DNA of 12,453 bases. It comes from an uncultured Gammaproteobacteria bacterium (lineage in GTDB: Bacteria; Patescibacteriota; Patescibacteriia; UBA2591; UBA6264). Made by a program: the position numbers and the translations under genes. This document shows, in pieces, positions 1 through 12,445 of the stretch. The stretch covers positions 1,177 through 13,629 of the forward strand of contig CAZDOL010000004.1 of assembly GCA_964507075.1 (NCBI GenBank), in the 5' to 3' direction. The notes below the pieces were generated by a model that made no database searches, had not been told where the DNA came from, and was given only the letters and a program-made list of their open reading frames with translations. Position 1 is the first letter of the stretch. Every line of letters begins with the position of its first letter.

Positions 1-73
1 CCAAGCCCTTAAAAAGAGCCTTGCGAGGACCAATTTTTCGAGATAAAATTTTTCCCTTTTTTCTGTGTCGCAT
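1..73 (-). CDS. rplQ: 50S ribosomal protein L17, N-terminal fragment (gene runs off the left edge)
   Basis: The reverse-strand ATG at 73..71 translates MRHRKKGKILSRKIGPRKALFKGL..., matching the canonical MRHRK... L17 N-terminus. It starts 8 nt after the rpoA stop, as in the conserved alpha operon. It is truncated, so it is not in the ORF track. Confidence 0.8.
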   Translation of the reverse strand, partial: MRHRKKGKILSRKIGPRKALFKGL

Positions 74-81
74 AGAACAAA

Positions 82-951
82 TTATTTTTTCTTTTTGGTT
101 TTAACTACTTTCTTAACTACTTTCTTAACTACTTTCTTAATAACCTTTTTATTTGCTACTTTTTTAGCAATTTTTTTAGTTGCTTTTTTAACAACCTTTG
201 GTTTGACAGCAACTATTTTCTTTTTTTCTGATGATTTAGAAGAAATAATAACAGCACTTAACTCACTCAAATAAGAAAACTGTTCGTTTAACAATTCCAT
301 AGCCTTTAATCCAGCTTCTAATGGAGAAATGGTCCCGTCTGTTTCAATTCCCAAAATCAACCTATCATAATCAGTGCGGCCTCCTACGCGCACATTCTCA
401 ATGTTAACTGAAACTTGCAAAATAGGTGTAAAAATTGAATCAACAACTATAGTGCCAATATCTAAATTTTCTCTTTCCTTTGCTTCTGAGGGTACCCAGC
501 CATAGCCCTTAGCTACCCAAATTTCCATTTCTAATTTGGCTTTTTTGTCAGTTAAATCAGCAATCAATAAATCAGGATTAATTATCTCTACATCTGCTAA
601 TCTTTCAATGTCAGAAGCATAAACCTTTTTTTCGCCACTAGCTTTTAGGATTAACTTAATAGGATCGTCGTTTTCTGAAAAAATTCTTAATCGCAATAAT
701 TTTAAATTCAAAATAATGCCCAGAACATCTTGATAAATATAAGGAATGGGAGAAAATTCATATTTAACTCCTTTTATCTTAACTGACACTACAGCTGCTC
801 CTCCCAAAGAAGTGAGCAAAACCCTCCGCAATGCATTGCCCCAAGTTATTCCATAACCAGGGTAACAGGGCTCAATAATTACAAAACCTTTGTTTTTGTT
901 TCCTTCGTCTTGTTGAAAATTAATTTCTCGTGGCAAAAAAATATTTTTCAT
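82..951 (-). CDS. rpoA: DNA-directed RNA polymerase alpha subunit (NTD only, plus a Lys-rich tail)
   Basis: This is a 289-aa ORF. Residues 1-231 align to the alpha N-terminal domain (GNALRRVLLTSLGGAAV vs E. coli GNALRRILLSSMPGCAV; RVGGRTDYDRLILGIETDGTISP vs [23 protein letters not shown]). It lies between rpsD and rplQ. The C-terminal 58 aa are Lys/Val-rich and have no helix-hairpin-helix CTD motif. Confidence 0.93.
   Translation of the reverse strand: MKNIFLPREINFQQDEGNKNKGFVIIEPCYPGYGITWGNALRRVLLTSLGGAAVVSVKIKGVKYEFSPIPYIYQDVLGIILNLKLLRLRIFSENDDPIKLILKASGEKKVYASDIERLADVEIINPDLLIADLTDKKAKLEMEIWVAKGYGWVPSEAKERENLDIGTIVVDSIFTPILQVSVNIENVRVGGRTDYDRLILGIETDGTISPLEAGLKAMELLNEQFSYLSELSAVIISSKSSEKKKIVAVKPKVVKKATKKIAKKVANKKVIKKVVKKVVKKVVKTKKKK
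103..138. repeat. Perfect 12-bp tandem repeat x3 (AACTACTTTCTT) inside the rpoA tail-coding region
   Basis: Three identical units occupy 103-114, 115-126 and 127-138, with a degenerate fourth unit after 139. On the minus strand they encode the (KKVV)n part of the RpoA tail. Confidence 0.9.
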
Positions 952-985
952 ATTATTAAATTTATCAAAATCTTTAAATTATATT

Positions 986-1618
986 TTAACGACTATAAAA
1001 TGCTATAATTAATTTGCTGTCAAATGCTTGGGGAAGGTCTTTCTCATTTGGCTCTTGCAAAATTTTAATCTGCAAATTCTTGGAATCAACGTCAAGCCAA
1101 ACTGGCAAGAAATCTTTATCTTTATTTTTGGATAAAGCAAGATTATTTTTAACCATTGATTCAATATTTTTTTTATTTTTGACTTTAATTATATCTCCAA
1201 TTTTTACTCTATAAGAAGGAATATCTAAACGTTTATCGTTTAATAAAACATTTCCGTGACTAATTAATTGACGTGCTGCTCTGCGCGAGCCAGTAAAACC
1301 AGCCTTACAAACCACATTATCAATTCTGGTTTCAAATAATCTTAAAAAGTTTATTTCTGTGTTCCCCTTTTTGTTTTTAGCATTAGTAAAATAATTTTTG
1401 CATTGTTTTTCTGATATGCCATAAAACCTTTTTAAGCGTTGTTTTTCCCGTAACTGCAAACCATATTCTGATAAACGAGAATAACCCTTTGGCCCATTGG
1501 CTCCTGGTGGATATTTTCTTTTATTCAAAGCGCACTTAGAGGTAGCACAACGTTCCCCTTTTAAAAAAAGTTTTTTGCCTTCTCGGCGACACATTTTACA
1601 TCTTGGCATTGATATCAT
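986..1618 (-). CDS. rpsD: 30S ribosomal protein S4
   Basis: The ORF track extends to 1660, but that start overlaps rpsK by 31 nt. The ATG at 1618 gives MISMPRCKMCRREGKKLFLKGERC..., which aligns with the Cys4 zinc-ribbon N-terminus of S4 (Thermus [26 protein letters not shown]). The C-terminus ...LIIAFYSR is typical. The ATG at 1609 is an alternative start. Confidence 0.9.
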   Translation of the reverse strand: MISMPRCKMCRREGKKLFLKGERCATSKCALNKRKYPPGANGPKGYSRLSEYGLQLREKQRLKRFYGISEKQCKNYFTNAKNKKGNTEINFLRLFETRIDNVVCKAGFTGSRRAARQLISHGNVLLNDKRLDIPSYRVKIGDIIKVKNKKNIESMVKNNLALSKNKDKDFLPVWLDVDSKNLQIKILQEPNEKDLPQAFDSKLIIAFYSR

Positions 1619-1629
1619 TTTTTGTATTT

Positions 1630-2016
1630 TTATACTCTTCTTACTCCTCGCGCTCGGCAACCATTATGTGGCAAAGGAGTAATGTCTTTAATTGATAAAA
1701 TATTCAGTCCGTTAGTATATAAGGACCTTACAGCTGATTCGCGGCCCATTCCAACTCCTTTTACAAAAACTTGCACTTCTTTTAGACCATAATCTTTAAC
1801 ACTTTCCACTACTTTTTTGACAATAATACTAGCGGCATAAGGGGTGGCCTTTTTAGCTCCCTTAAAACCAAAACAACCCGCACTAGACCAGGACAAAACA
1901 TTACCCCCTAAATCCGTTAAACTAACGATTGTGTTATTATAGGTGGCTTTAATGTATGCGCGGCCACGAGGCACCTGTTTGATTATTTTTTTCTTACGTT
2001 TTTTAATAACTGCCAT
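1630..2016 (-). CDS. rpsK: 30S ribosomal protein S11
   Basis: The 128-aa ORF contains typical S11 sequence: ...[30 protein letters not shown]...[13 protein letters not shown]...[13 protein letters not shown]. It lies between rpsM and rpsD. Confidence 0.95.
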
Positions 2017-2032
2017 AATATGATTAAATTAT

Positions 2033-2425
2033 TTATGTCTTTTGGGCTGATGGTCGTCTGCCACTGCCAGAAGTTTTTCTTATATTGCCACGAACAGTAC
2101 GACTATTTGTCTTTGTCCTCTGCCCACGAACAGGCAAACGTTTTGTGTGTCTAGTTCCCTTATAACAACCAATGTCTTTTAATCTTTTAATATTTGAAAT
2201 CACATCTCTTCTTAAATCTCCACCAGTTCTGTAATTATCTTCAATAATTTTTTTCAACTTACCCACCTCTTCTGGGTTTAGATTTTCTACTAACTTATTT
2301 TTGTCTATGTTGGCCTTTTCTAAAATCTCAATAGATAAACTGTGACCAATTCCAAAAATATAGGTTAAACCTATCTCAATTCTTTTTTTTGCTGGCAAAT
2401 TAATACCTACTATTCTCGCTATCAT
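2033..2425 (-). CDS. rpsM: 30S ribosomal protein S13
   Basis: The 130-aa ORF reads MIARIVGINLPAKKRIEIGLTYIFGIG...RLKDIGCYKGTRHTKRLPVRGQRTKTNSRT, which is canonical S13. Confidence 0.95.
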   Translation of the reverse strand: MIARIVGINLPAKKRIEIGLTYIFGIGHSLSIEILEKANIDKNKLVENLNPEEVGKLKKIIEDNYRTGGDLRRDVISNIKRLKDIGCYKGTRHTKRLPVRGQRTKTNSRTVRGNIRKTSGSGRRPSAQKT

Positions 2426-2508
2426 AGAAGTTGGTTAATTGGTTAATTAGGTAATTGGTTAATTGGGATTTTAAAATACCTAATCCCCAAGTACCCAAGT
2501 ACCTAAGT
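2426..2508. repeat. Spacer element E1: two blocks of phased 8-nt units filling the rpmJ-rpsM gap
   Basis: The plus strand reads GGTTAATT GGTTAATT AGGTAATT GGTTAATT (2433-2464), then the spacer GGGATTTTAAAATA, then CCTAATCC CCAAGTAC CCAAGTAC CTAAGT (2479-2508). It shares 9-10-mers with the element at 8743-8817. Confidence 0.7.
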
Positions 2509-2622
2509 TTATCCTTGTCTTTGTTTGTGCTTCGGGTTTTTACAAATAACATAAATCCTCTTCCCTCGACGGACTATCTTGCACGAATTACACATTTTTT
2601 TCACTGAAGATCTCACTTTCAT
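2509..2622 (-). CDS. rpmJ: 50S ribosomal protein L36
   Basis: At 37 aa it is too short for the ORF track. The reverse-strand reading frame runs from ATG 2622..2620 to TAA 2511..2509 and gives [37 protein letters not shown], canonical L36. It sits in the conserved infA-rpmJ-rpsM position. Confidence 0.9.
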
Positions 2623-2672
2623 AATAAATTTATATAGGGATACTAAAATATTGAAGAGATAAACTCCGCATT

Positions 2673-2695
2673 AAAAAAATCCTTTAAAAAGGATT
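2673..2695 (-). terminator. Weak intrinsic-terminator-like hairpin after infA
   Basis: The minus-sense sequence AAUCCUU-UUUA-AAGGAUU forms a 7-bp stem with only 2 G-C pairs, followed by a run of six U. It begins 4 nt after the infA stop. It may only attenuate readthrough into rpmJ. Confidence 0.35.
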
Positions 2696-2699
2696 AAAT

Positions 2700-2933
2700 C
2701 TATTTTAAGCGGTAGACTATTCTCCCTTTAGTTAAATCATAAGGACTAATTTCTAATTTTACTCTATCTCCTTGCGAAATCCTAATTCTATACATTCTCA
2801 TCTTTCCAGAAAGATGGGCTAAAATACTTTTCCCATTGTCTAGAGTGACCCTGAAGGTTGTTGATGGTAATAATTCTTCCACCACTCCTTCAGCATTTAA
2901 AAAGTCCTTAGATATTTTTTGTCTGTCAGGCAT
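2700..2933 (-). CDS. infA: Translation initiation factor IF-1
   Basis: The 77-aa ORF reads ...[63 protein letters not shown], the canonical IF-1 S1-like fold sequence. Confidence 0.93.
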
Positions 2934-2959
2934 AAAAAATTGATTTGTAGATATAAATT

Positions 2960-2988
2960 ATTTTACACATCCGTTATATTGTTGTCAA
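2960..2988 (-). promoter_or_regulatory. Candidate sigma-70-type promoter for infA
   Basis: The minus strand reads TTGACA (2988..2983), a 17-nt spacer, then TAAAAT (2965..2960), ending 26 nt upstream of the infA ATG. The -35 hexamer is a perfect consensus match. In AT-rich DNA the -10 match alone is weak evidence. Confidence 0.5.
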
Positions 2989-3123
2989 CCCCCACACTAT
3001 AACAGCAATGCATTTTCAATGCGAATTACTGTATAAAAATTTAATTCCGTTATTTCAAAAAACTATTTTAATTTGAAAAAATTTAAAAATGCAAATAAGC
3101 ATTATTGCTGTTTAGTGTGGGGG
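2989..3123. repeat. 135-bp inverted-repeat element (MITE-like or large stem-loop)
   Basis: The arms CCCCCACACTATAACAGCAATGC (2989-3011) and GCATTATTGCTGTTTAGTGTGGGGG (3099-3123) pair as 11 + 9 + 2 bp with small bulges. They enclose ~87 nt of AT-rich sequence. CAA flanks both ends (2986-2988 and 3124-3126). Confidence 0.7.
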
Positions 3124-3148
3124 CAACCCCTTATTATTAAATAAAAAA

Positions 3149-3820
3149 TTAATTAATGAATATTTTGATTCGAGATGGAAATAAAGGCAAACGTTGCCAA
3201 AACTCAGGCCAATTATTTATTTTGACAGTTTTTATTCCTGCTAATTCTGTTAAAATTCTGTTTGCTTCTGTTAATTTTTGTGAAGTCATAAACTTTTTCA
3301 AAGTTTTTAAATCATAATTCATAACCACTTCCTCTTTCATAGAAACCGACAAAATTGCTCTCCCCTTTTCTAAATCTTTGCTAATGATTTGAATCTCCCA
3401 TTCTAAGGGATGGAACTCTGCTACCTCCTTTATGGGTATAAAACCAGCATTTGGATGTTCTGTTTGGGAAGAATTATCTAAAATATTCTGCACTTTATAT
3501 TCAGCAATTTTTTGCATATCCCTTTTCAGAAAAACAACCATTTTTTTTGCTATATCATCTCTCAGCTCGTCAATTAATATATAATCTGGATCTAATTGTT
3601 CTTCTGAATTGATAGTAATAATTTCAGAAGAAATAATACCTAAGTTGAGTAAGGGCTGTTTGGCTCCTTGACTAAGGTTAATTTCAAAATCTAAAAGCAA
3701 GGGTTCAGAAATAGAGGTTAGTTCTATTTCTGTTCTAGGCAACCAAGCAATAGTAAATAATAAAAGTAAAATCAGCAAGCCGAAAACAAAAAATCTAAAA
3801 GTGGGAAAATTATATATCAT
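3149..3820 (-). CDS. Hypothetical single-pass membrane protein, translationally coupled to murB
   Basis: The 223-aa ORF has an N-terminal hydrophobic helix (FRFFVFGLLILLLLFTIAWL) followed by a soluble domain that I do not recognise. Its start ATG overlaps the murB TGA (ATGA at 3820..3817). Confidence 0.7.
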   Translation of the reverse strand: MIYNFPTFRFFVFGLLILLLLFTIAWLPRTEIELTSISEPLLLDFEINLSQGAKQPLLNLGIISSEIITINSEEQLDPDYILIDELRDDIAKKMVVFLKRDMQKIAEYKVQNILDNSSQTEHPNAGFIPIKEVAEFHPLEWEIQIISKDLEKGRAILSVSMKEEVVMNYDLKTLKKFMTSQKLTEANRILTELAGIKTVKINNWPEFWQRLPLFPSRIKIFIN

Positions 3821-4767
3821 ACCAAATACTCAATTTCTAAAGCTAAATTAATATTAAATTTTTTCTTGACTTGTTCTTGAACAATTTTTATTAGAGATTG
3901 AACATCCTGAGCTTTAGCCTTATTAATGTTAATTATAAAATTAGCATGTTGACTACTAATCTGCGCTCCGCCTATTTTATGACCCCTTAATCCGCATCTA
4001 TCAATCAGCCAACCAGCAGGAATATTCCCTTTTTCAATAAAAACAGGTGGTAACTGATTTAAAAGAGATGAGGGCATATTTTTTTTGATTTCAATGTTCT
4101 TGAAAATGCAACCCGCGGAACAACCCCGCGGAACCCCCTTTTGGCGAATATTTATAATCTCTTTCTGGGTTGATAAAATTTTATTCTGATTTTCTAACCT
4201 CAATTTAAACTCTGCCGAAAGAATAATTATTTTTTTAGAATCAAGATTTTTCAATCTACTGCTACGATAAGCAAACTTAAACCAATCGGCTTCCTTCTTG
4301 CTAATTTGACCATCAGGCATTAACAAAGTAGCACTGACCACAAAATCCCCTATGCTTTTTTTATTTCGAGGCCAGCCAGCATTACCATAGATTGCTCCTC
4401 CTATTGTTCCCGGAATACCAACAAAATATTCCAATCCACTTAATCCTTGTTTAATAGAAAAAGCAATTAATTCACTTAACAATACACCGGCCCCTACCTC
4501 CACTATTCTTGAAACTCCTTGGCTTTTCTTTATTTTAACACCCATAGCCGGAACCTTAATCAAGAGACCATTAAACCCTTGGTCTGATACTAAAATATTA
4601 CTTCCTCCTCCTAAAACGAAATACGGAATGTTCTGTTCTTGGGCCCAACCAACAACCTTCTTGAGCTCTTCTTTGTTTTGAGCTTCAAAAAAATACTTAG
4701 CTTGACCGCCTATTTTAAAAGTAGTCAAAGAATCTATTCTCACATTCTTTTGTATTAACAAATTCAT
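3817..4767 (-). CDS. murB: UDP-N-acetylenolpyruvoylglucosamine reductase
   Basis: The 316-aa ORF has the typical MurB FAD-binding N-terminus (TTFKIGGQAKYFFEA...VLGGGSNILVSDQGFNGLLIK) and C-terminal domain (AGWLIDRCGLRGHKIGGAQISSQHANFIIN). Confidence 0.92.
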   Translation of the reverse strand: MNLLIQKNVRIDSLTTFKIGGQAKYFFEAQNKEELKKVVGWAQEQNIPYFVLGGGSNILVSDQGFNGLLIKVPAMGVKIKKSQGVSRIVEVGAGVLLSELIAFSIKQGLSGLEYFVGIPGTIGGAIYGNAGWPRNKKSIGDFVVSATLLMPDGQISKKEADWFKFAYRSSRLKNLDSKKIIILSAEFKLRLENQNKILSTQKEIINIRQKGVPRGCSAGCIFKNIEIKKNMPSSLLNQLPPVFIEKGNIPAGWLIDRCGLRGHKIGGAQISSQHANFIININKAKAQDVQSLIKIVQEQVKKKFNINLALEIEYLV

Positions 4768-4852
4768 ATAAACTTTATTATTTTTTGTTTTATGCTCTCT
4801 TTGAATTTTAACAAATTTTATCCATAAAAGCCATTGTCGGTTTGATAAAACT

Positions 4853-4880
4853 TTGATACAATATTATTACATTATATATA
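4853..4880 (+). promoter_or_regulatory. Candidate promoter for corA
   Basis: TTGATA (4853-4858) is followed by 16 nt and then TATATA (4875-4880), about 20 nt upstream of the corA ATG. A second TTGATA lies at 4842-4847. The AT-rich context makes chance matches likely. Confidence 0.3.
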
Positions 4881-4899
4881 AAAAATTAACCCCAAACTA

Positions 4900-5829
4900 A
4901 TGGCTAATTTAAATATTCAAGAAATAAAAAGTAAAAATTTAACATGGATAAATGTTTCGGCTTGTGAGCCAAAAGAGATGAAAAAAATTGAACAAAGATT
5001 TAAGCTTCATCCCTTACATATTAATGATTGTCTTTCTCCAGTCCAAAGACCCAAATTAGATATTACTACCAATTATTTATTTATGGTCCTTTTATTTCCT
5101 GTTTATAATCGCCGTACCAGAAAAATCATCTCTTCGGAAATTGACTTTTTTATTAACTCCAACACTTTAATTACTATCCATCGCGGAGAATTAGCCCCTT
5201 TAATAAACTTTTTCAACCTCTGCCAAACCAATCAAGAACAAAAAGAAAAATATTTTATTGGTAGTCCAGCCATTTTAATATATGAACTCTTGAATCGCCT
5301 CTTGTCCTCGTGCAATCCTATTCTAGGCAACATGAACCTCAATATAAACAGTATTGAAGAAAATATTTTTGATGGCTATGAAAAAAGAATGGTTAGAGAA
5401 ATATTAATAGCTAAAACAAATATAGTAAATTTTAGAAGGATCACCCAGAGTCATCGTTTGGTGGTTACTAAATTATTAGAAAAAAGCTCTCTATTCTTTT
5501 CTCCTGGTCAATTAAAAATATATTTTAAGGAAGTTATAGAAACGGCCGAAGATATCTGGCAGAATCTTGAGAACTTGAAACAAACAATTGAGGCTATTGA
5601 GCAAACGAATAATTCTTTAATATCTTTTCAATTAAACGATATTATTAAAATTCTAACCATAATTTCTATTGTCGTTCTCCCAATTAGTTTAATAGGAACC
5701 ATTTTTGGAATGAATCTAAAATTTTTACCTCTCGCAAATCATCCTGTTGGATTTTTTGTATTATTAGGTGCAATGGTATTAATAATTATATTCCTGATTA
5801 GTTATTTTAAGAAAAGAAAATGGTTTTAA
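4900..5829 (+). CDS. corA: CorA-family Mg2+/Co2+ transporter
   Basis: The 309-aa ORF has two C-terminal TM helices flanking the signature GMN motif (LIGTIFGMNLKFLP), and a basic C-terminal end (KKRKWF). Confidence 0.9.
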   Translation: MANLNIQEIKSKNLTWINVSACEPKEMKKIEQRFKLHPLHINDCLSPVQRPKLDITTNYLFMVLLFPVYNRRTRKIISSEIDFFINSNTLITIHRGELAPLINFFNLCQTNQEQKEKYFIGSPAILIYELLNRLLSSCNPILGNMNLNINSIEENIFDGYEKRMVREILIAKTNIVNFRRITQSHRLVVTKLLEKSSLFFSPGQLKIYFKEVIETAEDIWQNLENLKQTIEAIEQTNNSLISFQLNDIIKILTIISIVVLPISLIGTIFGMNLKFLPLANHPVGFFVLLGAMVLIIIFLISYFKKRKWF

Positions 5830-5848
5830 ATATGAAAAATTATCATTT

Positions 5849-7240
5849 ATGCTTAAAATATATAATACTTTAAATAGAAAAAAAGAAAACTTTAAACCTA
5901 TCAGAAAAGGTAAAGTTGGGCTCTATAGTTGTGGCCCAACTGTTTATAACTATGCCCACATTGGTAACTTGCGGGCATATATTTTTGCGGATATCTTAAA
6001 AAGAGTATTAAAATATAATAACTATAGCGTAAAACATGTCATTAATATTACCGACATTGGACATCTCGTTTCTGATGCTGACGAAGGAGAAGACAAAATG
6101 GTCAAAGCCTTAAAGCGCGAGGGAAAAGAGTTAAATAAAAAATCAATGAAAGAAATGGCTAATTTTTACGCCAAATCCTTTTATCAAGACATCAAAGAAT
6201 TAAATATTTTAAAAGCAAACAAATTTCCCAAAGCCACCAAACATATCAAATGCATGGTCAAAATGATCCAACAAATACAAAAAAATGGCTATGCTTATGA
6301 AACATCTGATGCTATTTATTTTAATACTCATAAGCTTCAGAATTATGGATATTTAGCGCGATTAGACACTAAAAAATTTTGTCCCAGAGCAAGAATAAAA
6401 ACAAATCCCGAAAAGAAAAATATTACTGATTTTGCTTTGTGGTTTAAGGCAACAGGAGAAAAGAAAACTCACCTAATGCAATGGAACTCCCCTTGGGGGA
6501 AAGGTTGGCCTGGTTGGCATATTGAATGTTCGGCAATGTCCACGAAACATTTAAAACAACCATTTGATATTCATACCGGGGGAATAGACCATATTCCAGT
6601 TCATCACACCAATGAAATTGCCCAAGCTCAGGCCGCCCAAAACAAGCCCTTGGCTAACTATTGGCTCCATAATGAATTTTTAATTTTGGATAAAGAAAAA
6701 ATGGCCAAAAGCGGTGAAGGTTTTATTACTCTCTCTTCTCTAATTACTAAGGGCTTCAATCCCTTAGCTTATCGCTATCTTTGCTTAAGTGCCCATTACC
6801 GCTCTCCTCTTTCCTTTAGTTGGGAAAACTTAACCGCAGCTCAAAATGCTTTAAATAATCTCAACAATCTTATTTCTCAATACCCTCAACCAAGTAAAAT
6901 AATAGAACCAATAAAAAAAGAATTTCTGACAACTATCAATAATGATTTAGATACTCCTGGCGCCTTGGCTATCCTTTGGGATTTAATTAAGAGTAATCAG
7001 CCAAATAATAAAAAAATGGCCACTCTTTTAGAGTTTGATAAAGTGCTGGGATTAAAATTTAATAAAATAAAAAAAACCTCTCTAAAGATTCCTGACGAAA
7101 TAAAAAAATTATCTAAAAAAAGAGAAGAATTGCGTCAACAAAAAAAATGGTCAGAAGCCGACCAAATACGAGAAGAAATAGAAAAACTTAGTTTTAGTAT
7201 AGAAGACACCCCCAAAGGAACCAAAATCAACAAAATTTAA
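5849..7240 (+). CDS. cysS: Cysteine--tRNA ligase
   Basis: The 463-aa ORF has CGPTVYNYAHIGNLR (the HIGH motif region), the WHIECSAM zinc-site region, and KMAKSGEG (a KMSKS variant). Confidence 0.95.
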   Translation: MLKIYNTLNRKKENFKPIRKGKVGLYSCGPTVYNYAHIGNLRAYIFADILKRVLKYNNYSVKHVINITDIGHLVSDADEGEDKMVKALKREGKELNKKSMKEMANFYAKSFYQDIKELNILKANKFPKATKHIKCMVKMIQQIQKNGYAYETSDAIYFNTHKLQNYGYLARLDTKKFCPRARIKTNPEKKNITDFALWFKATGEKKTHLMQWNSPWGKGWPGWHIECSAMSTKHLKQPFDIHTGGIDHIPVHHTNEIAQAQAAQNKPLANYWLHNEFLILDKEKMAKSGEGFITLSSLITKGFNPLAYRYLCLSAHYRSPLSFSWENLTAAQNALNNLNNLISQYPQPSKIIEPIKKEFLTTINNDLDTPGALAILWDLIKSNQPNNKKMATLLEFDKVLGLKFNKIKKTSLKIPDEIKKLSKKREELRQQKKWSEADQIREEIEKLSFSIEDTPKGTKINKI

Positions 7241-7957: not shown

Positions 7958-8027
7958 ATGATTATTTATTAAATGATAAATATTAATATGAGATAAATAA
8001 TTTTCAGAAAAGATTCACTGTTGCTGC

Positions 8028-8056
8028 AAAAAACAAACCCGACGGGTTTGTTTTTT
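8028..8056 (-). terminator. Strong intrinsic terminator after rplA (symmetric, potentially bidirectional)
   Basis: AAAAAACAAACCC-GAC-GGGTTTGTTTTTT is a perfect 13-bp palindromic stem with a 3-nt loop and a T6/A6 run on either side. It begins 8 nt after the rplA stop. Confidence 0.8.
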
Positions 8057-8064
8057 AAGATTGA

Positions 8065-8742
8065 TTATAGGGCAATTTTCAAAGCTGGGCCCATAGTAGA
8101 AGATAAAAATACTTTTTTGACAAAAATTCCCTTAACACCAACTGGTTTAAGTTTTTTGATTACATTTAGACATTCATCAATATTAGCCTTGATTTTTTCT
8201 TCATCCCAAGATATTTTAGCTACAGATTGATGAAGATTAGCGCCAGCATCATTTTTAAAAGTAATTTTACCCCCTCGTAATTCTTTAATTATAGCGGGAA
8301 CATCAATGCCAATTGTGCCTGTTTTTGGACTTGGCATTAGACCCTTAGGGCCCAAAATCTTAGCAATTTGAGCTAAATCTGCCATCAAATCAGGATGAGC
8401 AACAACTACATCACAAACGCAATTACCCTCTTCCTTAATTTTTTGAATAAGCTTTTTTCCTCCCACTAAATCAGCTCCTGCTTTTTCTGCTTCTTTTATC
8501 TTGCTTTCTTCCATAAAAGCAATAATTTTCCTTTTTTTCACTACTCCATGAGGTAAACTAATTGCGCCCCTTACTTGTTGTTCTGTTTTGCGAGGATTAA
8601 TTCCTAATTGAATATGTAGCTCTATGGTCTCGTCAAAACTAGAAAAAGTATTTTCTTTGATAATTTTTATAGCTTCTTCCAAAGAATAGCTTTTATTTTT
8701 GTCTATTTTTGATTTTATTTTTTGATATCTTTTACTCCGCAT
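8065..8742 (-). CDS. rplA: 50S ribosomal protein L1
   Basis: The 225-aa ORF reads ...FDETIELHIQLGINPRKTEQQVRGAISLPHG...MADLAQIAKILGPKGLMPSPKTGT..., canonical L1. It lies downstream of rplK. Confidence 0.95.
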   Translation of the reverse strand: MRSKRYQKIKSKIDKNKSYSLEEAIKIIKENTFSSFDETIELHIQLGINPRKTEQQVRGAISLPHGVVKKRKIIAFMEESKIKEAEKAGADLVGGKKLIQKIKEEGNCVCDVVVAHPDLMADLAQIAKILGPKGLMPSPKTGTIGIDVPAIIKELRGGKITFKNDAGANLHQSVAKISWDEEKIKANIDECLNVIKKLKPVGVKGIFVKKVFLSSTMGPALKIAL

Positions 8743-8817
8743 AAACGCTTCGCTTAGTTACTTGGTTAATTAGTTAATTAGGATCCAGATTACCTAAGTA
8801 CCCGATTACCCGATTGC
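8743..8817. repeat. Spacer element E2: second copy of the phased 8-nt-unit element, filling the rplK-rplA gap
   Basis: The plus strand reads GGTTAATT AGTTAATT AGG (8764-8782), then the spacer ATCCAGATT, then ACCTAAGT ACCCGATT ACCCGATT GCC (8792-8818). It shares TTGGTTAATT, GTTAATTAGG and TACCTAAGT with E1. Confidence 0.7.
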
Positions 8818-9243
8818 CTAATCTTCTACCTCTATGCCCATTTGTTGAGCGGTTCCAGATATAATTTTAACTGCTTGGTCTAAATTGTCGGTATTTAAAT
8901 CTGGTATTTTTATTTTAGCAATCTCTTTAATTTTAGATTTAGAAATATTTCCTACTTTTTTCTGTAAAGAATTTCCTGAACCTTTATCAATATTAATCGC
9001 TTTCTTTAAAAGATCAGTGGTTAAAGGAGTTTTGAGAATAAAACTGTAAGTGCGATCTTCATAAACGCTAATTTCAACCGGCAAAATATAACCAACCTGG
9101 TCCTTGCTTTTCTCGTTAAATTGCTGACAAAATTCTGAAATATTAAGACCATGCTGTCCTAATGCTGGGCCCACAGGAGGCGCAGGATTAGCTTGTCCAG
9201 CTTGAATTTGTAATTTAATAATAGATATAATTTTTTTTGCCAT
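8818..9243 (-). CDS. rplK: 50S ribosomal protein L11
   Basis: The 141-aa ORF reads MAKKIISIIKLQIQAGQANPAPPVGPALGQHGLNISEFCQQFN..., canonical L11. Confidence 0.95.
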   Translation of the reverse strand: MAKKIISIIKLQIQAGQANPAPPVGPALGQHGLNISEFCQQFNEKSKDQVGYILPVEISVYEDRTYSFILKTPLTTDLLKKAINIDKGSGNSLQKKVGNISKSKIKEIAKIKIPDLNTDNLDQAVKIISGTAQQMGIEVED

Positions 9244-9416
9244 ACTAAATTTGTCTAAATTTATGAGTTACGAAGTAACGAAAAAAATTTCGTTTCAAAT
9301 TTAAGTACCCTGTTAAATGTCGCCCTGCGACAATTTCGCTTTTAGCGAAATTATTTAACAGGGTAAAGGTTTTCTATCAAAAATTTCTATGTCTACGATT
9401 TAAAATTTTTGAGAAA
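9244..9416 (-). promoter_or_regulatory. Repeated structured leader element, copy 1 (upstream of rplK)
   Basis: By hand alignment, 9247-9365 matches 10162-10280 at 108 of 119 positions. The core 9308-9363 folds as three perfect helices (11, 8 and 5 bp). Further hairpins lie at 9267-9294 and 9378-9411. The element ends 3 nt before the rplK ATG. Confidence 0.6.
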
Positions 9417-9421
9417 GCCCT

Positions 9422-9967
9422 TTACAACTTTTTAATTTGCAAAAAATCAAGTTCAGTGGGCGTTTCCCGACCAAAAACCGAAATTAAAATTTTAACTCTT
9501 CCTCGCGCCTCATCAATAGAGGCAACTTTCCCTTCAAAACCCTTGAAGGGTCCATCAATAACCTTTACTGGCGCGTTAATCTTTATGTCAATTTTATATT
9601 TTGGCTCTTCTACTCCCATTCTCTTTTGAATGGTTTTAATTTCTTTTTCGTCCAAAGGAATGGGTGTTGTTCCAGAACCGATAAAACCAGTAACATTGGG
9701 GGTGTTGCGAACCACATACCAAGAATCATCAGTAACTATCATATCAACAATAACATAACCAGGAAAAATTTTCTCTACAACAATTTTTCGTTTACCGTTT
9801 CTTATTTTTATTCTTTTTTCTATTGGAACCAAAACATTAAAAATTTTATCTGACATTCGCATAGATTCGATTCTTTGACACAAACTATCAGCAACATTTT
9901 CCTCATAACCAGAATAAACGTGAATTGCATACCAACGCCGTCCTTCGTGTTGTATTTGCTTAGGCAT
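9422..9967 (-). CDS. nusG: Transcription termination/antitermination factor NusG
   Basis: The 181-aa ORF has an NGN domain (RWYAIHVYSGYEENV...FPGYVIVDM) and a KOW motif (GPFKGFEGKVASID). It lies between secE and rplK, as in the conserved cluster. Confidence 0.93.
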   Translation of the reverse strand: MPKQIQHEGRRWYAIHVYSGYEENVADSLCQRIESMRMSDKIFNVLVPIEKRIKIRNGKRKIVVEKIFPGYVIVDMIVTDDSWYVVRNTPNVTGFIGSGTTPIPLDEKEIKTIQKRMGVEEPKYKIDIKINAPVKVIDGPFKGFEGKVASIDEARGRVKILISVFGRETPTELDFLQIKKL

Positions 9968-9973
9968 AGAAAA

Positions 9974-10156
9974 TTATATTACTAATTGTAAAACTTTCGT
10001 TAAAATGAAATCAACTATCCCCAAAAAAAGCGCCATACCTAAACTGATTCCCACTACTAAAAAAGTGTGATTAATTGTTTGCTTCTTGGTTGGCCAATTC
10101 ACCTTCTTAAGTTCTATAACAGAATTCCTAAAATAATTAGATATTTTATTTGACAT
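9974..10156 (-). CDS. secE: Preprotein translocase subunit SecE (short, single-TM form)
   Basis: From the ATG at 10156 the product is MSNKISNYFRNSVIELKKVNWPTKKQTINHTFLVVGISLGMALFLGIVDFILTKVLQLVI (60 aa), which has the typical E(L/V)KKV.WP motif plus one TM helix. The ORF-track start at 10213 lies inside the repeated non-coding element, so I reject it. Confidence 0.8.
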   Translation of the reverse strand: MSNKISNYFRNSVIELKKVNWPTKKQTINHTFLVVGISLGMALFLGIVDFILTKVLQLVI

Positions 10157-10333
10157 ATACCAAATTTGTCTAAATTTACGAGTTACGAAGTAACGAAGGA
10201 AATTTCGTTTCAAATTTGAGTACCCTGTTAAATGCTACTCTGTAGCAATTTCGCTTTTAGCGAAATTATTTAACAGGGTAAGGTTTTGTTACTGAAAAAT
10301 CTTCACCCTACGGGTTTGATTTTCTCAGATAAA
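10157..10333 (-). promoter_or_regulatory. Repeated structured leader element, copy 2 (upstream of secE)
   Basis: This is the same element as 9244-9416. The three-helix core is at 10223-10278, with P3 changed by three compensatory pairs. The upstream hairpin is at 10294-10324. The element ends 5 nt before the secE ATG. Confidence 0.6.
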
Positions 10334-10343
10334 ATCCTTATTT

Positions 10344-10411: not shown

Positions 10412-12445
<2,034 letters not shown>

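Follow-up and report, generated by a model that had tools for sequence, protein, structure and literature searches.

The DNA analysed here, called the window throughout, is a stretch of 12,453 nt from contig CAZDOL010000004.1 of the uncultured bacterium GCA_964507075.1 (GTDB lineage Patescibacteriota), with a G+C content of 31-35%. This low value, the order of the genes and the relatives of the element all point to a Patescibacteria genome. Its minus strand carries gyrB, secE, nusG, rplK and rplA, and the spacers preceding secE and rplK each contain a copy of the same 56-nt sequence (the core), in which a closing stem (P1) and two hairpins (P2 and P3) meet to form a T. Each core is embedded in a longer repeat, which we have termed the carrier. 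We think it probable that the core is a miniature derivative of a cassette encoding a GIY-YIG nuclease between inverted repeats, and that this derivative, non-autonomous and deprived of an open reading frame (ORF), is propagated as selfish DNA. The features on which the analysis is based are the following:

10412-12430, minus strand: gyrB (Pfam)
10157-10340, minus strand: carrier element, secE copy, from a TAA (10340-10338) to the base before the secE ATG (10156-10154)
10292-10328, minus strand: 5' flank hairpin H0 of the secE copy, CTGAGAAAATC...ACCC-GTA-GGGT...GATTTTTCAG, from the DNA fold
10223-10278, minus strand: T-shaped core, secE copy, with P1 and P2 as in the rplK copy and P3 = GCTAC-AGA-GTAGC
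10182-10209, minus strand: pair of small hairpins in the 3' flank of the secE copy, read from the sequence
ATG at 10156, minus strand: secE (Pfam)
9422-9967, minus strand: nusG (Pfam)
9244-9424, minus strand: carrier element of about 175 nt, rplK copy, starting with TAA, the stop codon of nusG (9424-9422), and ending at the base that precedes the rplK ATG (9243-9241)
9374-9413, minus strand: degenerate, H0-like 5' flank hairpin of the rplK copy, from the alignment of the 5' flanks
9308-9363, minus strand: T-shaped core, rplK copy, 56 nt, with P1 corresponding to the terminal inverted repeat seen in GIY-YIG cassettes
9308-9318 with 9353-9363, minus strand: P1 of the rplK copy, 11 bp
9332-9352 (9332-9339 with 9345-9352), minus strand: P2 hairpin of the rplK copy, 8 bp
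9319-9331 (9319-9323 with 9327-9331), minus strand: P3 hairpin of the rplK copy, 5 bp
9267-9294, minus strand: two small 3' flank hairpins of the rplK copy (AACGAAA-TTTT-TTTCGTT and GTTAC-TTC-GTAAC), read from the sequence
8818-9243, minus strand: rplK (Pfam)
8065-8742, minus strand: rplA (Pfam)

The rplK and secE copies can be aligned over approximately 175 nt, and the alignment extends precisely as far as the downstream gene's start codon. This length, and not 56 or 119 nt, is the repeat unit, which fills the space between a stop codon and the start codon that follows. The carrier of the rplK copy also aligns with a third copy, located before a T2SSF gene, and with a family of carrier flanks from other metagenome-assembled genomes (MAGs); in the secE copy, the carrier starts 3' of the gyrB terminator-like hairpin. 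An initial annotation of the window had described the coordinates of the core and the pairings of P1, P2 and P3 around a junction-free centre, and these proved to be exact: all pairs of both cores are Watson-Crick, with 0 unpaired nucleotides at the junction. Its comparison with the secE copy also holds, P1 and P2 being identical and P3 presenting 7 differences in 13 nt, six of which make up three compensatory double changes. Outside P3, we counted 5 differences up to the start codon instead of the 4 given there, a detail that depends on where the boundary is set. When folded as RNA, the two cores gave minimum free energies of -38.9 and -38.6 kcal/mol, compared to around -18 for dinucleotide shuffles (z-scores of -5.8 and -6.9), and none of 200 shuffles folded as well as either of them. 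Folding as DNA with the full flanks gave a z-score of -7.6. Regarding these flanks, the H0 hairpin of the secE copy covaries over the carrier family, and the two small 3' hairpins are kept in the three copies, the first of them being recovered by the computed fold. The carriers of this genome also have terminal inverted repeats (TTTGTCTGA/TTAGACAAA), which are not conserved over the carrier family.

The third copy lies just outside the window on the same contig (L001:1318-1500), between the genes for T2SSE and T2SSF (PilC-type). Its flanks are around 90-97% identical to those of the secE copy, and the 3' flanks of both differ by 2 aligned differences and a 2-nt indel before the start codon. 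Within its core, a compensated deletion has shortened P2 by 1 bp, and the hairpin at P3 (AAAATC-GAA-GATTTT) is unrelated. No further copies were found when the contig was extended via gyrB and the last gene of the window. On a contig obtained from a different sample (L006), NusG is identical, and the gyrB, secE, nusG, rplK, rplA and tmk genes are 99.1-99.6% identical to those of the window. This contig is devoid of the element at both the secE and the rplK sites, with spacers of 82 nt between gyrB and secE and 16 nt between nusG and rplK. At the secE site, a block of 174 nt (10160-10333) is missing in L006. In this genome, three or more loci bear the carrier, which has recently been gained or lost as a block.

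secE was missed by gene callers on the element-bearing contigs L001-L003 and L005, and was called on L004, L006 and L211. In the window, the mechanical secE ORF (9974-10213) begins at a TTG inside the element (10213), and the comparison with L006 places the start at the ATG at 10156.

We scanned one genome per prokaryotic species with the pattern CCCTGTTAAAT-N30-38-ATTTAACAGGG, that is, with exact P1 arms, and found it in at least 120 genomic stretches. Among the matches listed, most MAGs are labelled Patescibacteria, from many classes, and the other labels are Omnitrophota (4 MAGs), Desulfobacterales/Deltaproteobacteria (at least 7), Cloacimonadota, Bacteroidetes and Gammaproteobacteria. Several of the loci not labelled Patescibacteria have a G+C content of 42-56%; local composition alone therefore does not account for the A+T-rich arms. 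The scan of viral contigs for the core gave 0 matches. In one case (L008, JAHJJO010000063.1), two apparent inverted copies 5.5 kb apart were discarded as a fold-back assembly artefact; this 6,934-nt contig is a perfect inverted duplication, with arms (1-3467 and 3468-6934) that are 100% complementary.

The ORF-less cores, or minis, have arms of 11-15 nt and units of 52-60 nt (139 cores, from loci all of which were chosen because they contain a core with exact arms). Two perfect hairpins, flush with the junction and mostly with loops of 3 nt, make up the interior of 106 of 130 cores, and about 95% of the stem pairs are Watson-Crick in the 73 cores lying between co-directional genes. Among 24 gap-free homologous cores, changes on both sides were observed in 5/5 pairs of P3 and 5/9 pairs of P2, with 94.7% of the cells paired, and the covariation score was reached by 0 of 500 shuffles. 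A relaxed search gave covariant forms of P1 as well (CCCCGTTAAAT/ATTTAACGGGG and TCCTG.../...CAGGA). The initial annotation had proposed that changes in sequence leave the helices, or at least the dyad symmetry, intact, and this is borne out by the family-wide covariation of P2 and P3 and by the covarying variants of P1.

Regarding their gene context, 74 cores lie between tandem, 9 between convergent and 15 between divergent genes, roughly as intergenic spacers in general, and they are found in either polarity relative to the genes. On the gene-sense strand the loops are symmetric, with 18 AAA vs 14 TTT and 14 GAA vs 16 TTC. When the cores are instead oriented by themselves, with the AATT-type P2 ahead of P3, 55 of them have a purine-rich P3 loop vs 12 (p = 1e-7). 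The commonest P3 loop is GAA, usually closed by C-G, which is a very stable DNA mini-hairpin motif (GNA) and not an RNA-stability motif. As the polarity of the core is unrelated to gene direction, a strand-specific DNA hairpin fits these data better than an mRNA signal. The order of P2 and P3 varies among members of a flank family, and even inside a single MAG (L010 vs L061; L025 vs L112). Moreover, a single P3 is common to 6 copies in MAG CAZDKA01 and to 4 in JAHJSK01, hence P3 is not a per-locus address; considered as a guide, it gave no match in the flanks.

The minis share a symmetric flank consensus (TTYA-core-TRAA), which is that of the cassette stop-codon context. The carriers start at a stop codon (TAAAGGGCTTTGTCTGA...) and finish at an ATG in several genomes, and no carrier without a core was found among the collected loci. 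Several arrangements depart from the simple T. Minis nested at the P3 position of other minis were found in L041, L056, L097 and L016, and tandem minis in L011, together with long-P3 forms and with interiors of 124 and 264 nt. In the short forms (L026:7333-7367, L083:3004-3038 and L102:~4620-4642), the P1 arms enclose AG and one 4-bp hairpin (TTGC-NNN-GCAA or TCGC-AAA-GCGA), and the conserved unpaired AG sits at the P3 branch point. Finally, L064, L077 and L078, from the Desulfobacterales MAG CR_Bin_276 (49-52% G+C), have exact P1 arms around a different 38-nt interior, TTGGCGCAAGCTTCACTTCGTGTCCCGAAGGGAACCCT, which does not consist of two flush hairpins.

The same arms are also found around small nuclease genes of Patescibacteria and other phyla. 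At L122:6236-6521 they enclose a 264-nt interior consisting of an 84-aa ORF with a GIY-YIG domain (PF01541, 49.5 bits), and the right arm ATTTAACAGGGTAA specifies its C-terminus (SYLTG-stop); 30 nt upstream there is an ordinary mini. Two homologues at other loci end in ...RFLSLTG-stop (CTAACGGGATGA), and an inverted copy of this end (TCCCGTTA...) is located just upstream of each start codon. A metagenome scan with these three GIY-YIG proteins yielded more than 490 relatives, of which 80 were kept. An inverted repeat between leader and C-terminus, with at least 10 matches, was present in 55 of 77 distinct metagenomic GIY-YIG loci vs 3 of 77 shuffled controls. The left arm is located 0-25 nt ahead of the start codon, the last codons, ...(S)YLTG, and the stop make up the right arm, and the consensus of P1 and of the terminal repeats is TTYA-CCCTGTTAAAT ... 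ATTTAACAGGG-TRA. The arms fall into covarying classes (CCCTGTTAAAT/ATTTAACAGGG, CCCCGTTAGAGA/TCTCTAACGGGG, ...GTCAAAT, ...GTGAAAT, CCCTATTAAAT, CCATGTTAAAT and CCCTATGTAAT), some of which alter the C-terminal residues (LIG, LTW, FTG, YIG). Since the classes covary although these residues change, the repeat is maintained even at a cost to the protein sequence.

Minis and cassettes also occur side by side. Minis of other arm classes adjoin cassettes with arms that differ by 1-2 nt (L166, L177, L189, L192 and L198) or are identical (L122). In L157, a full cassette belongs to the carrier flank family of the window copies: a stop codon is followed by GG-TT-GTC..., a covarying H0 and ...AACCAAACCTTAA, then by arm, ORF and arm, and the unit finishes at the ATG of rplX. 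Full cassettes are strongly co-oriented with their neighbours (33 +G+ vs 1 -G-) and their stop often abuts the next ATG (GGGTAAATG), from which we conclude that they are transcribed within operons. The nucleases are stand-alone proteins of around 85 aa of the UPF0213/YhbQ type, with PF01541 scores of 49.5-65.5 bits (cut-off 22.6), invariant residues Y3, Y5, Y16, G18, R26, H30 and E50, and the UPF0213 proteins 1ZG2 and 1YWL as closest solved structures. The window itself has no gene for the partner nuclease. YhbQ and YazA belong to the Slx1 family, whose members are structure-selective nucleases (PMC7017083), and GIY-YIG genes are among those horizontally donated by Patescibacteria (PMC12455944).

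Some cassettes (L128, L132, L134, L143, L144 and L150) seemingly lie inside genes for four-helix bundles of the IVP type (intervening-sequence proteins of 23S rRNA), at a conserved NIAEG motif and with the host ORF split; these host genes were recognised by eye from the translated flanks and not by a Pfam scan. The right flank of these cassettes, TAAAAGGGTTTTG, resembles the reverse complement of ACAAAACCTTTA from the window carrier.

The core would be to the cassette what a MITE, a miniature transposable element bounded by inverted repeats, is to its autonomous element, P1 being the terminal inverted repeat, and P2 and P3 palindromic stuffers. It is dispersed in multiple copies, present or absent between strains and nested, it shares its arms with cassettes and covaries with them, and it is located next to them. 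Mobilisation would depend on the nuclease. Two short palindromes, P2 and P3, would take the place of the ORF, allowing the arms to fold as a perfect T-shaped hairpin or cruciform. The nuclease could then act in trans on these arms, plausibly, given its family, on the extruded hairpin or the three-way junction, and repair of the break would copy the element. A compact and self-contained fold may make the insert tolerable inside operons. The compensatory changes in P2 and P3 would, in this scheme, arise from a requirement to stay palindromic or from a bias of hairpin-templated repair, rather than from locus-specific recognition.

Several observations weigh against the core being a mobile derivative of the cassettes. 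The comparison of filled and empty sites revealed no target-site duplication and no clean insertion junction, and between nusG and rplK the whole 16-nt spacer is replaced, not interrupted. In this genome, it is the whole carrier of about 175 nt that has moved, rather than just the core within its arms. The ~26 kb available for this organism, with the contig extended through gyrB and the last gene of the window, contain no GIY-YIG gene, and the P2/P3 interior bears no sequence relation to the ORF. The invariance of P1 is partly given by construction, the scan having required exact arms, and some of the taxon labels of the MAGs may be binning errors. Lastly, G-T is weakly in excess over A-C in the sense strand, both in minis (23 vs 10) and in cassette arms (20 vs 11).

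Because of this excess, a role in RNA stays the main rival. One might argue that the element is an RNA structure useful to the host, in which the arms form a long stem in the transcript that insulates the insert, serves, like rRNA intervening sequences, as an RNase III-type processing site or brings the upstream stop and the downstream start codon together, preserving operon expression, and that minis are kept for this RNA function. The co-orientation of full cassettes, with stops abutting the next ATG, would suit such a role, as would a carrier that extends exactly from stop to start codon and is all hairpins. It would also suit the GIY-YIG and IVP ORFs reported in rRNA-gene insertions of the candidate phyla radiation (CPR), where GIY-YIG ORFs appear only in non-intron insertions and stems cut by RNase III are known (PMC11270868). 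Yet we judge this explanation unlikely, as minis take either polarity and occur between divergent or convergent genes about as often as expected from background, their loops have no bias relative to transcription and the polarity of the purine P3 loop is independent of gene direction. Besides, a 99%-identical strain lives without the element, and the C-GAA-G triloops stabilise DNA and not RNA. Minis could also be immobile remnants, produced in situ by deletion of the GIY-YIG ORF between regulatory inverted repeats, with no propagation of their own. Their arms are indeed identical to cassette arms, with AATT after the left arm in both, and they adjoin cassettes. However, the stereotyped interior (the two flush hairpins in 106/130 cores), the near-identical copies, flanks included, at unrelated loci of one genome, the minis nested in minis and the carrier block that is polymorphic as a unit are not expected from random deletion; remnants of this kind are a quite improbable origin.

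The initial annotation had considered a different kind of RNA, an autoregulatory leader mimicking the rRNA sites bound by L11 or L1, with P3 as a copy-specific specificity hairpin on a scaffold for ribosomal proteins or NusG, or else a palindromic operator with copy-specific half-sites. The strong fold and the position upstream of rplK and secE speak for such a leader, but the element also precedes T2SSF and is found at no fewer than 120 unrelated loci of many phyla, in both polarities, and P3 is not locus-specific in other genomes, where several copies have it in common. Scanning the window (E<=1) and 10 related loci against Rfam 15 gave no relevant match. Since the near-identical strain does without the element at both orthologous sites and a pilus gene also has a copy, a regulatory leader for essential ribosomal genes is ruled against, and an operator is unlikely because P3 is hypervariable and only P1 constant. 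Taken together, we give these proposals almost no credence. The minus-strand sigma-70 promoter suggested in the arm was not flagged by a consensus scan, promoter-like sites being only around 2-fold above background; the arms point inward on both strands. As palindromic selfish DNA yields the same signal, compensatory changes between two copies in one window are insufficient for calling a regulatory RNA.

In order to contextualize the mobile derivative proposed here, we compared it with known systems. As in MITEs, there are terminal inverted repeats, a small non-coding body, dispersed copies and a coding partner with identical or covarying arms, and the element is intergenic and multi-copy, with subfamilies, nesting and strain variation. 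Unlike in MITEs, the partner, a minimal GIY-YIG nuclease, is no transposase of the DDE, HUH or recombinase kind, target-site duplications were not seen, the TTYA/TRAA flanks belong to the repeat, the interior is limited to two flush hairpins and the right repeat is coding sequence in the partner. Repetitive extragenic palindromes (REPs and REPINs) and their associated tyrosine transposases (RAYTs) are similar in that dispersed extragenic palindromes maintain their pairing and are probably read as folded single strands by the product of a single- or low-copy nuclease gene (PMC3116915; PMC3733652), but our element is a T and not a simple hairpin, its arms are common across phyla rather than species-specific, and its nuclease is GIY-YIG and not a Y1 HUH transposase. 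The core consensus contains no GTAG/CGTC tag and the linked gene is of the GIY-YIG type, no search having been made for RAYT genes. Freestanding GIY-YIG homing endonucleases of the T4 seg type, which carry out intronless homing, are likewise encoded by genes wedged between conserved genes, co-oriented with them and variably present in close strains, and the replacement of a few adjacent bases at empty and filled sites looks like co-conversion. The cassette proteins, however, have around 85 aa and no separate DNA-binding domain, and homing alone does not explain the inverted repeats and the ORF-less minis at many loci.

The inverted terminal repeat of adeno-associated virus (AAV) is a T-shaped hairpin with flip and flop forms, and its A-B-B'-C-C'-A' layout, with a constant stem and two internal palindromes in either order, is that of the core. 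The likeness is one of form only, as our element is chromosomal and internal instead of a replicative telomere and there is no Rep/HUH protein. Double-hairpin elements are also found in the mitochondria of Allomyces and chytrids, in Allomyces associated with the insertion of a mobile GIY-YIG ORF. These and the GC clusters of yeast mitochondria (PMC4478555) are tiny mobile two-hairpin intergenic elements as well. They are organellar, have other sequences and are not known to possess a conserved closing stem doubling as the termini of a nuclease gene. The rRNA intervening sequences and the non-intron insertions of CPR bacteria are stem-bounded, self-contained inserts, some of them encoding GIY-YIG or 23S_rRNA_IVP proteins; the copies in the window lie in mRNA spacers, and the survey of those insertions describes neither inverted repeats nor minis (PMC11270868). 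The proposed mobile-element family behind cassettes and minis differs from each of its closest analogues in at least one defining feature.

Other candidates were discarded. The arms contain GTTAAAT and ATTTAAC, as in integron attC sites (RYYYAAC ... GTTRRRY, with extrahelical bases), but in the inverse order relative to the loop, and neither arrays nor an integrase lie nearby. The sequence TGTTAAAT matches the XerD arm of E. coli dif, but the arms face outward and are 30-38 bp apart, unlike in Xer/dif sites, where two inverted 11-bp arms surround a centre of 6-8 bp. An IS903-like end (GGCTTTGTTGAA) is present at one end only and was taken as a coincidence. In the literature, we found no description of the element or of GIY-YIG cassettes with inverted repeats, with incomplete coverage and an earlier description being possible; one paper containing both arm strings turned out to be a primer coincidence.

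If correct, the derivation of the core from GIY-YIG cassettes would account for a conspicuous set of structured repeats between the genes of the tiny Patescibacteria genomes, repeats that could be mistaken for riboswitches, leaders or terminators. It would also tie these repeats to an abundant family of ~85-aa GIY-YIG proteins of unknown function, and suggest a route of mobilisation with no need for a classical transposase or an intron. More tentatively, small stand-alone GIY-YIG nucleases (UPF0213/YhbQ/Slx1-type) might be the engine of an unrecognised class of prokaryotic mobile elements, a possibility that we hold to be somewhat short of even. Cassettes and T-shaped ORF-less minis would spread within and between phyla, inserting in operons between a stop and a start codon, within IVP-type genes and perhaps also in rRNA genes, with the nuclease recognising the three-way junction or cruciform of its own ends. 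Such a class would give a role to the large UPF0213 family, whose function is unknown.

All four spacers from gyrB to tmk differ between the window and L006, which are 99% identical in their genes. The rplA-tmk spacer (7958-8064 in the window) has 73 nt vs 10 nt in L006 past a common terminator-like hairpin (AAACCCGTCGGGTTTG), and the first Tmk codons differ; this hairpin plus ...GCAGCAACA resembles the H0 region of the carrier. The rplK-rplA spacer has 81 nt, and in L006 it consists of 37 nt of other sequence with three AATTTCT repeats, the last L11 codons being different too. This spacer (8743-8817), together with positions 2439-2506, contains a second and unrelated repeat family, with units of the GGTAATYG / TTAACTAA type that form an imperfect palindrome.

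Elsewhere in the window, no tRNA or tmRNA genes were found. An ORF of 289 aa (82-951, minus strand) occupies the position of rpoA between rpsD and rplQ, has no Pfam match in precomputed tables and contains at its 3' end a 12-nt tandem repeat, TTAACTACTTTC, present three times at 101-148. Finally, a sub-threshold Rfam match to the Streptococcus sRNA SpF51 (2674-2721, minus strand; 29.8 bits vs a gathering threshold of 50), downstream of infA, looks like an ordinary terminator hairpin.

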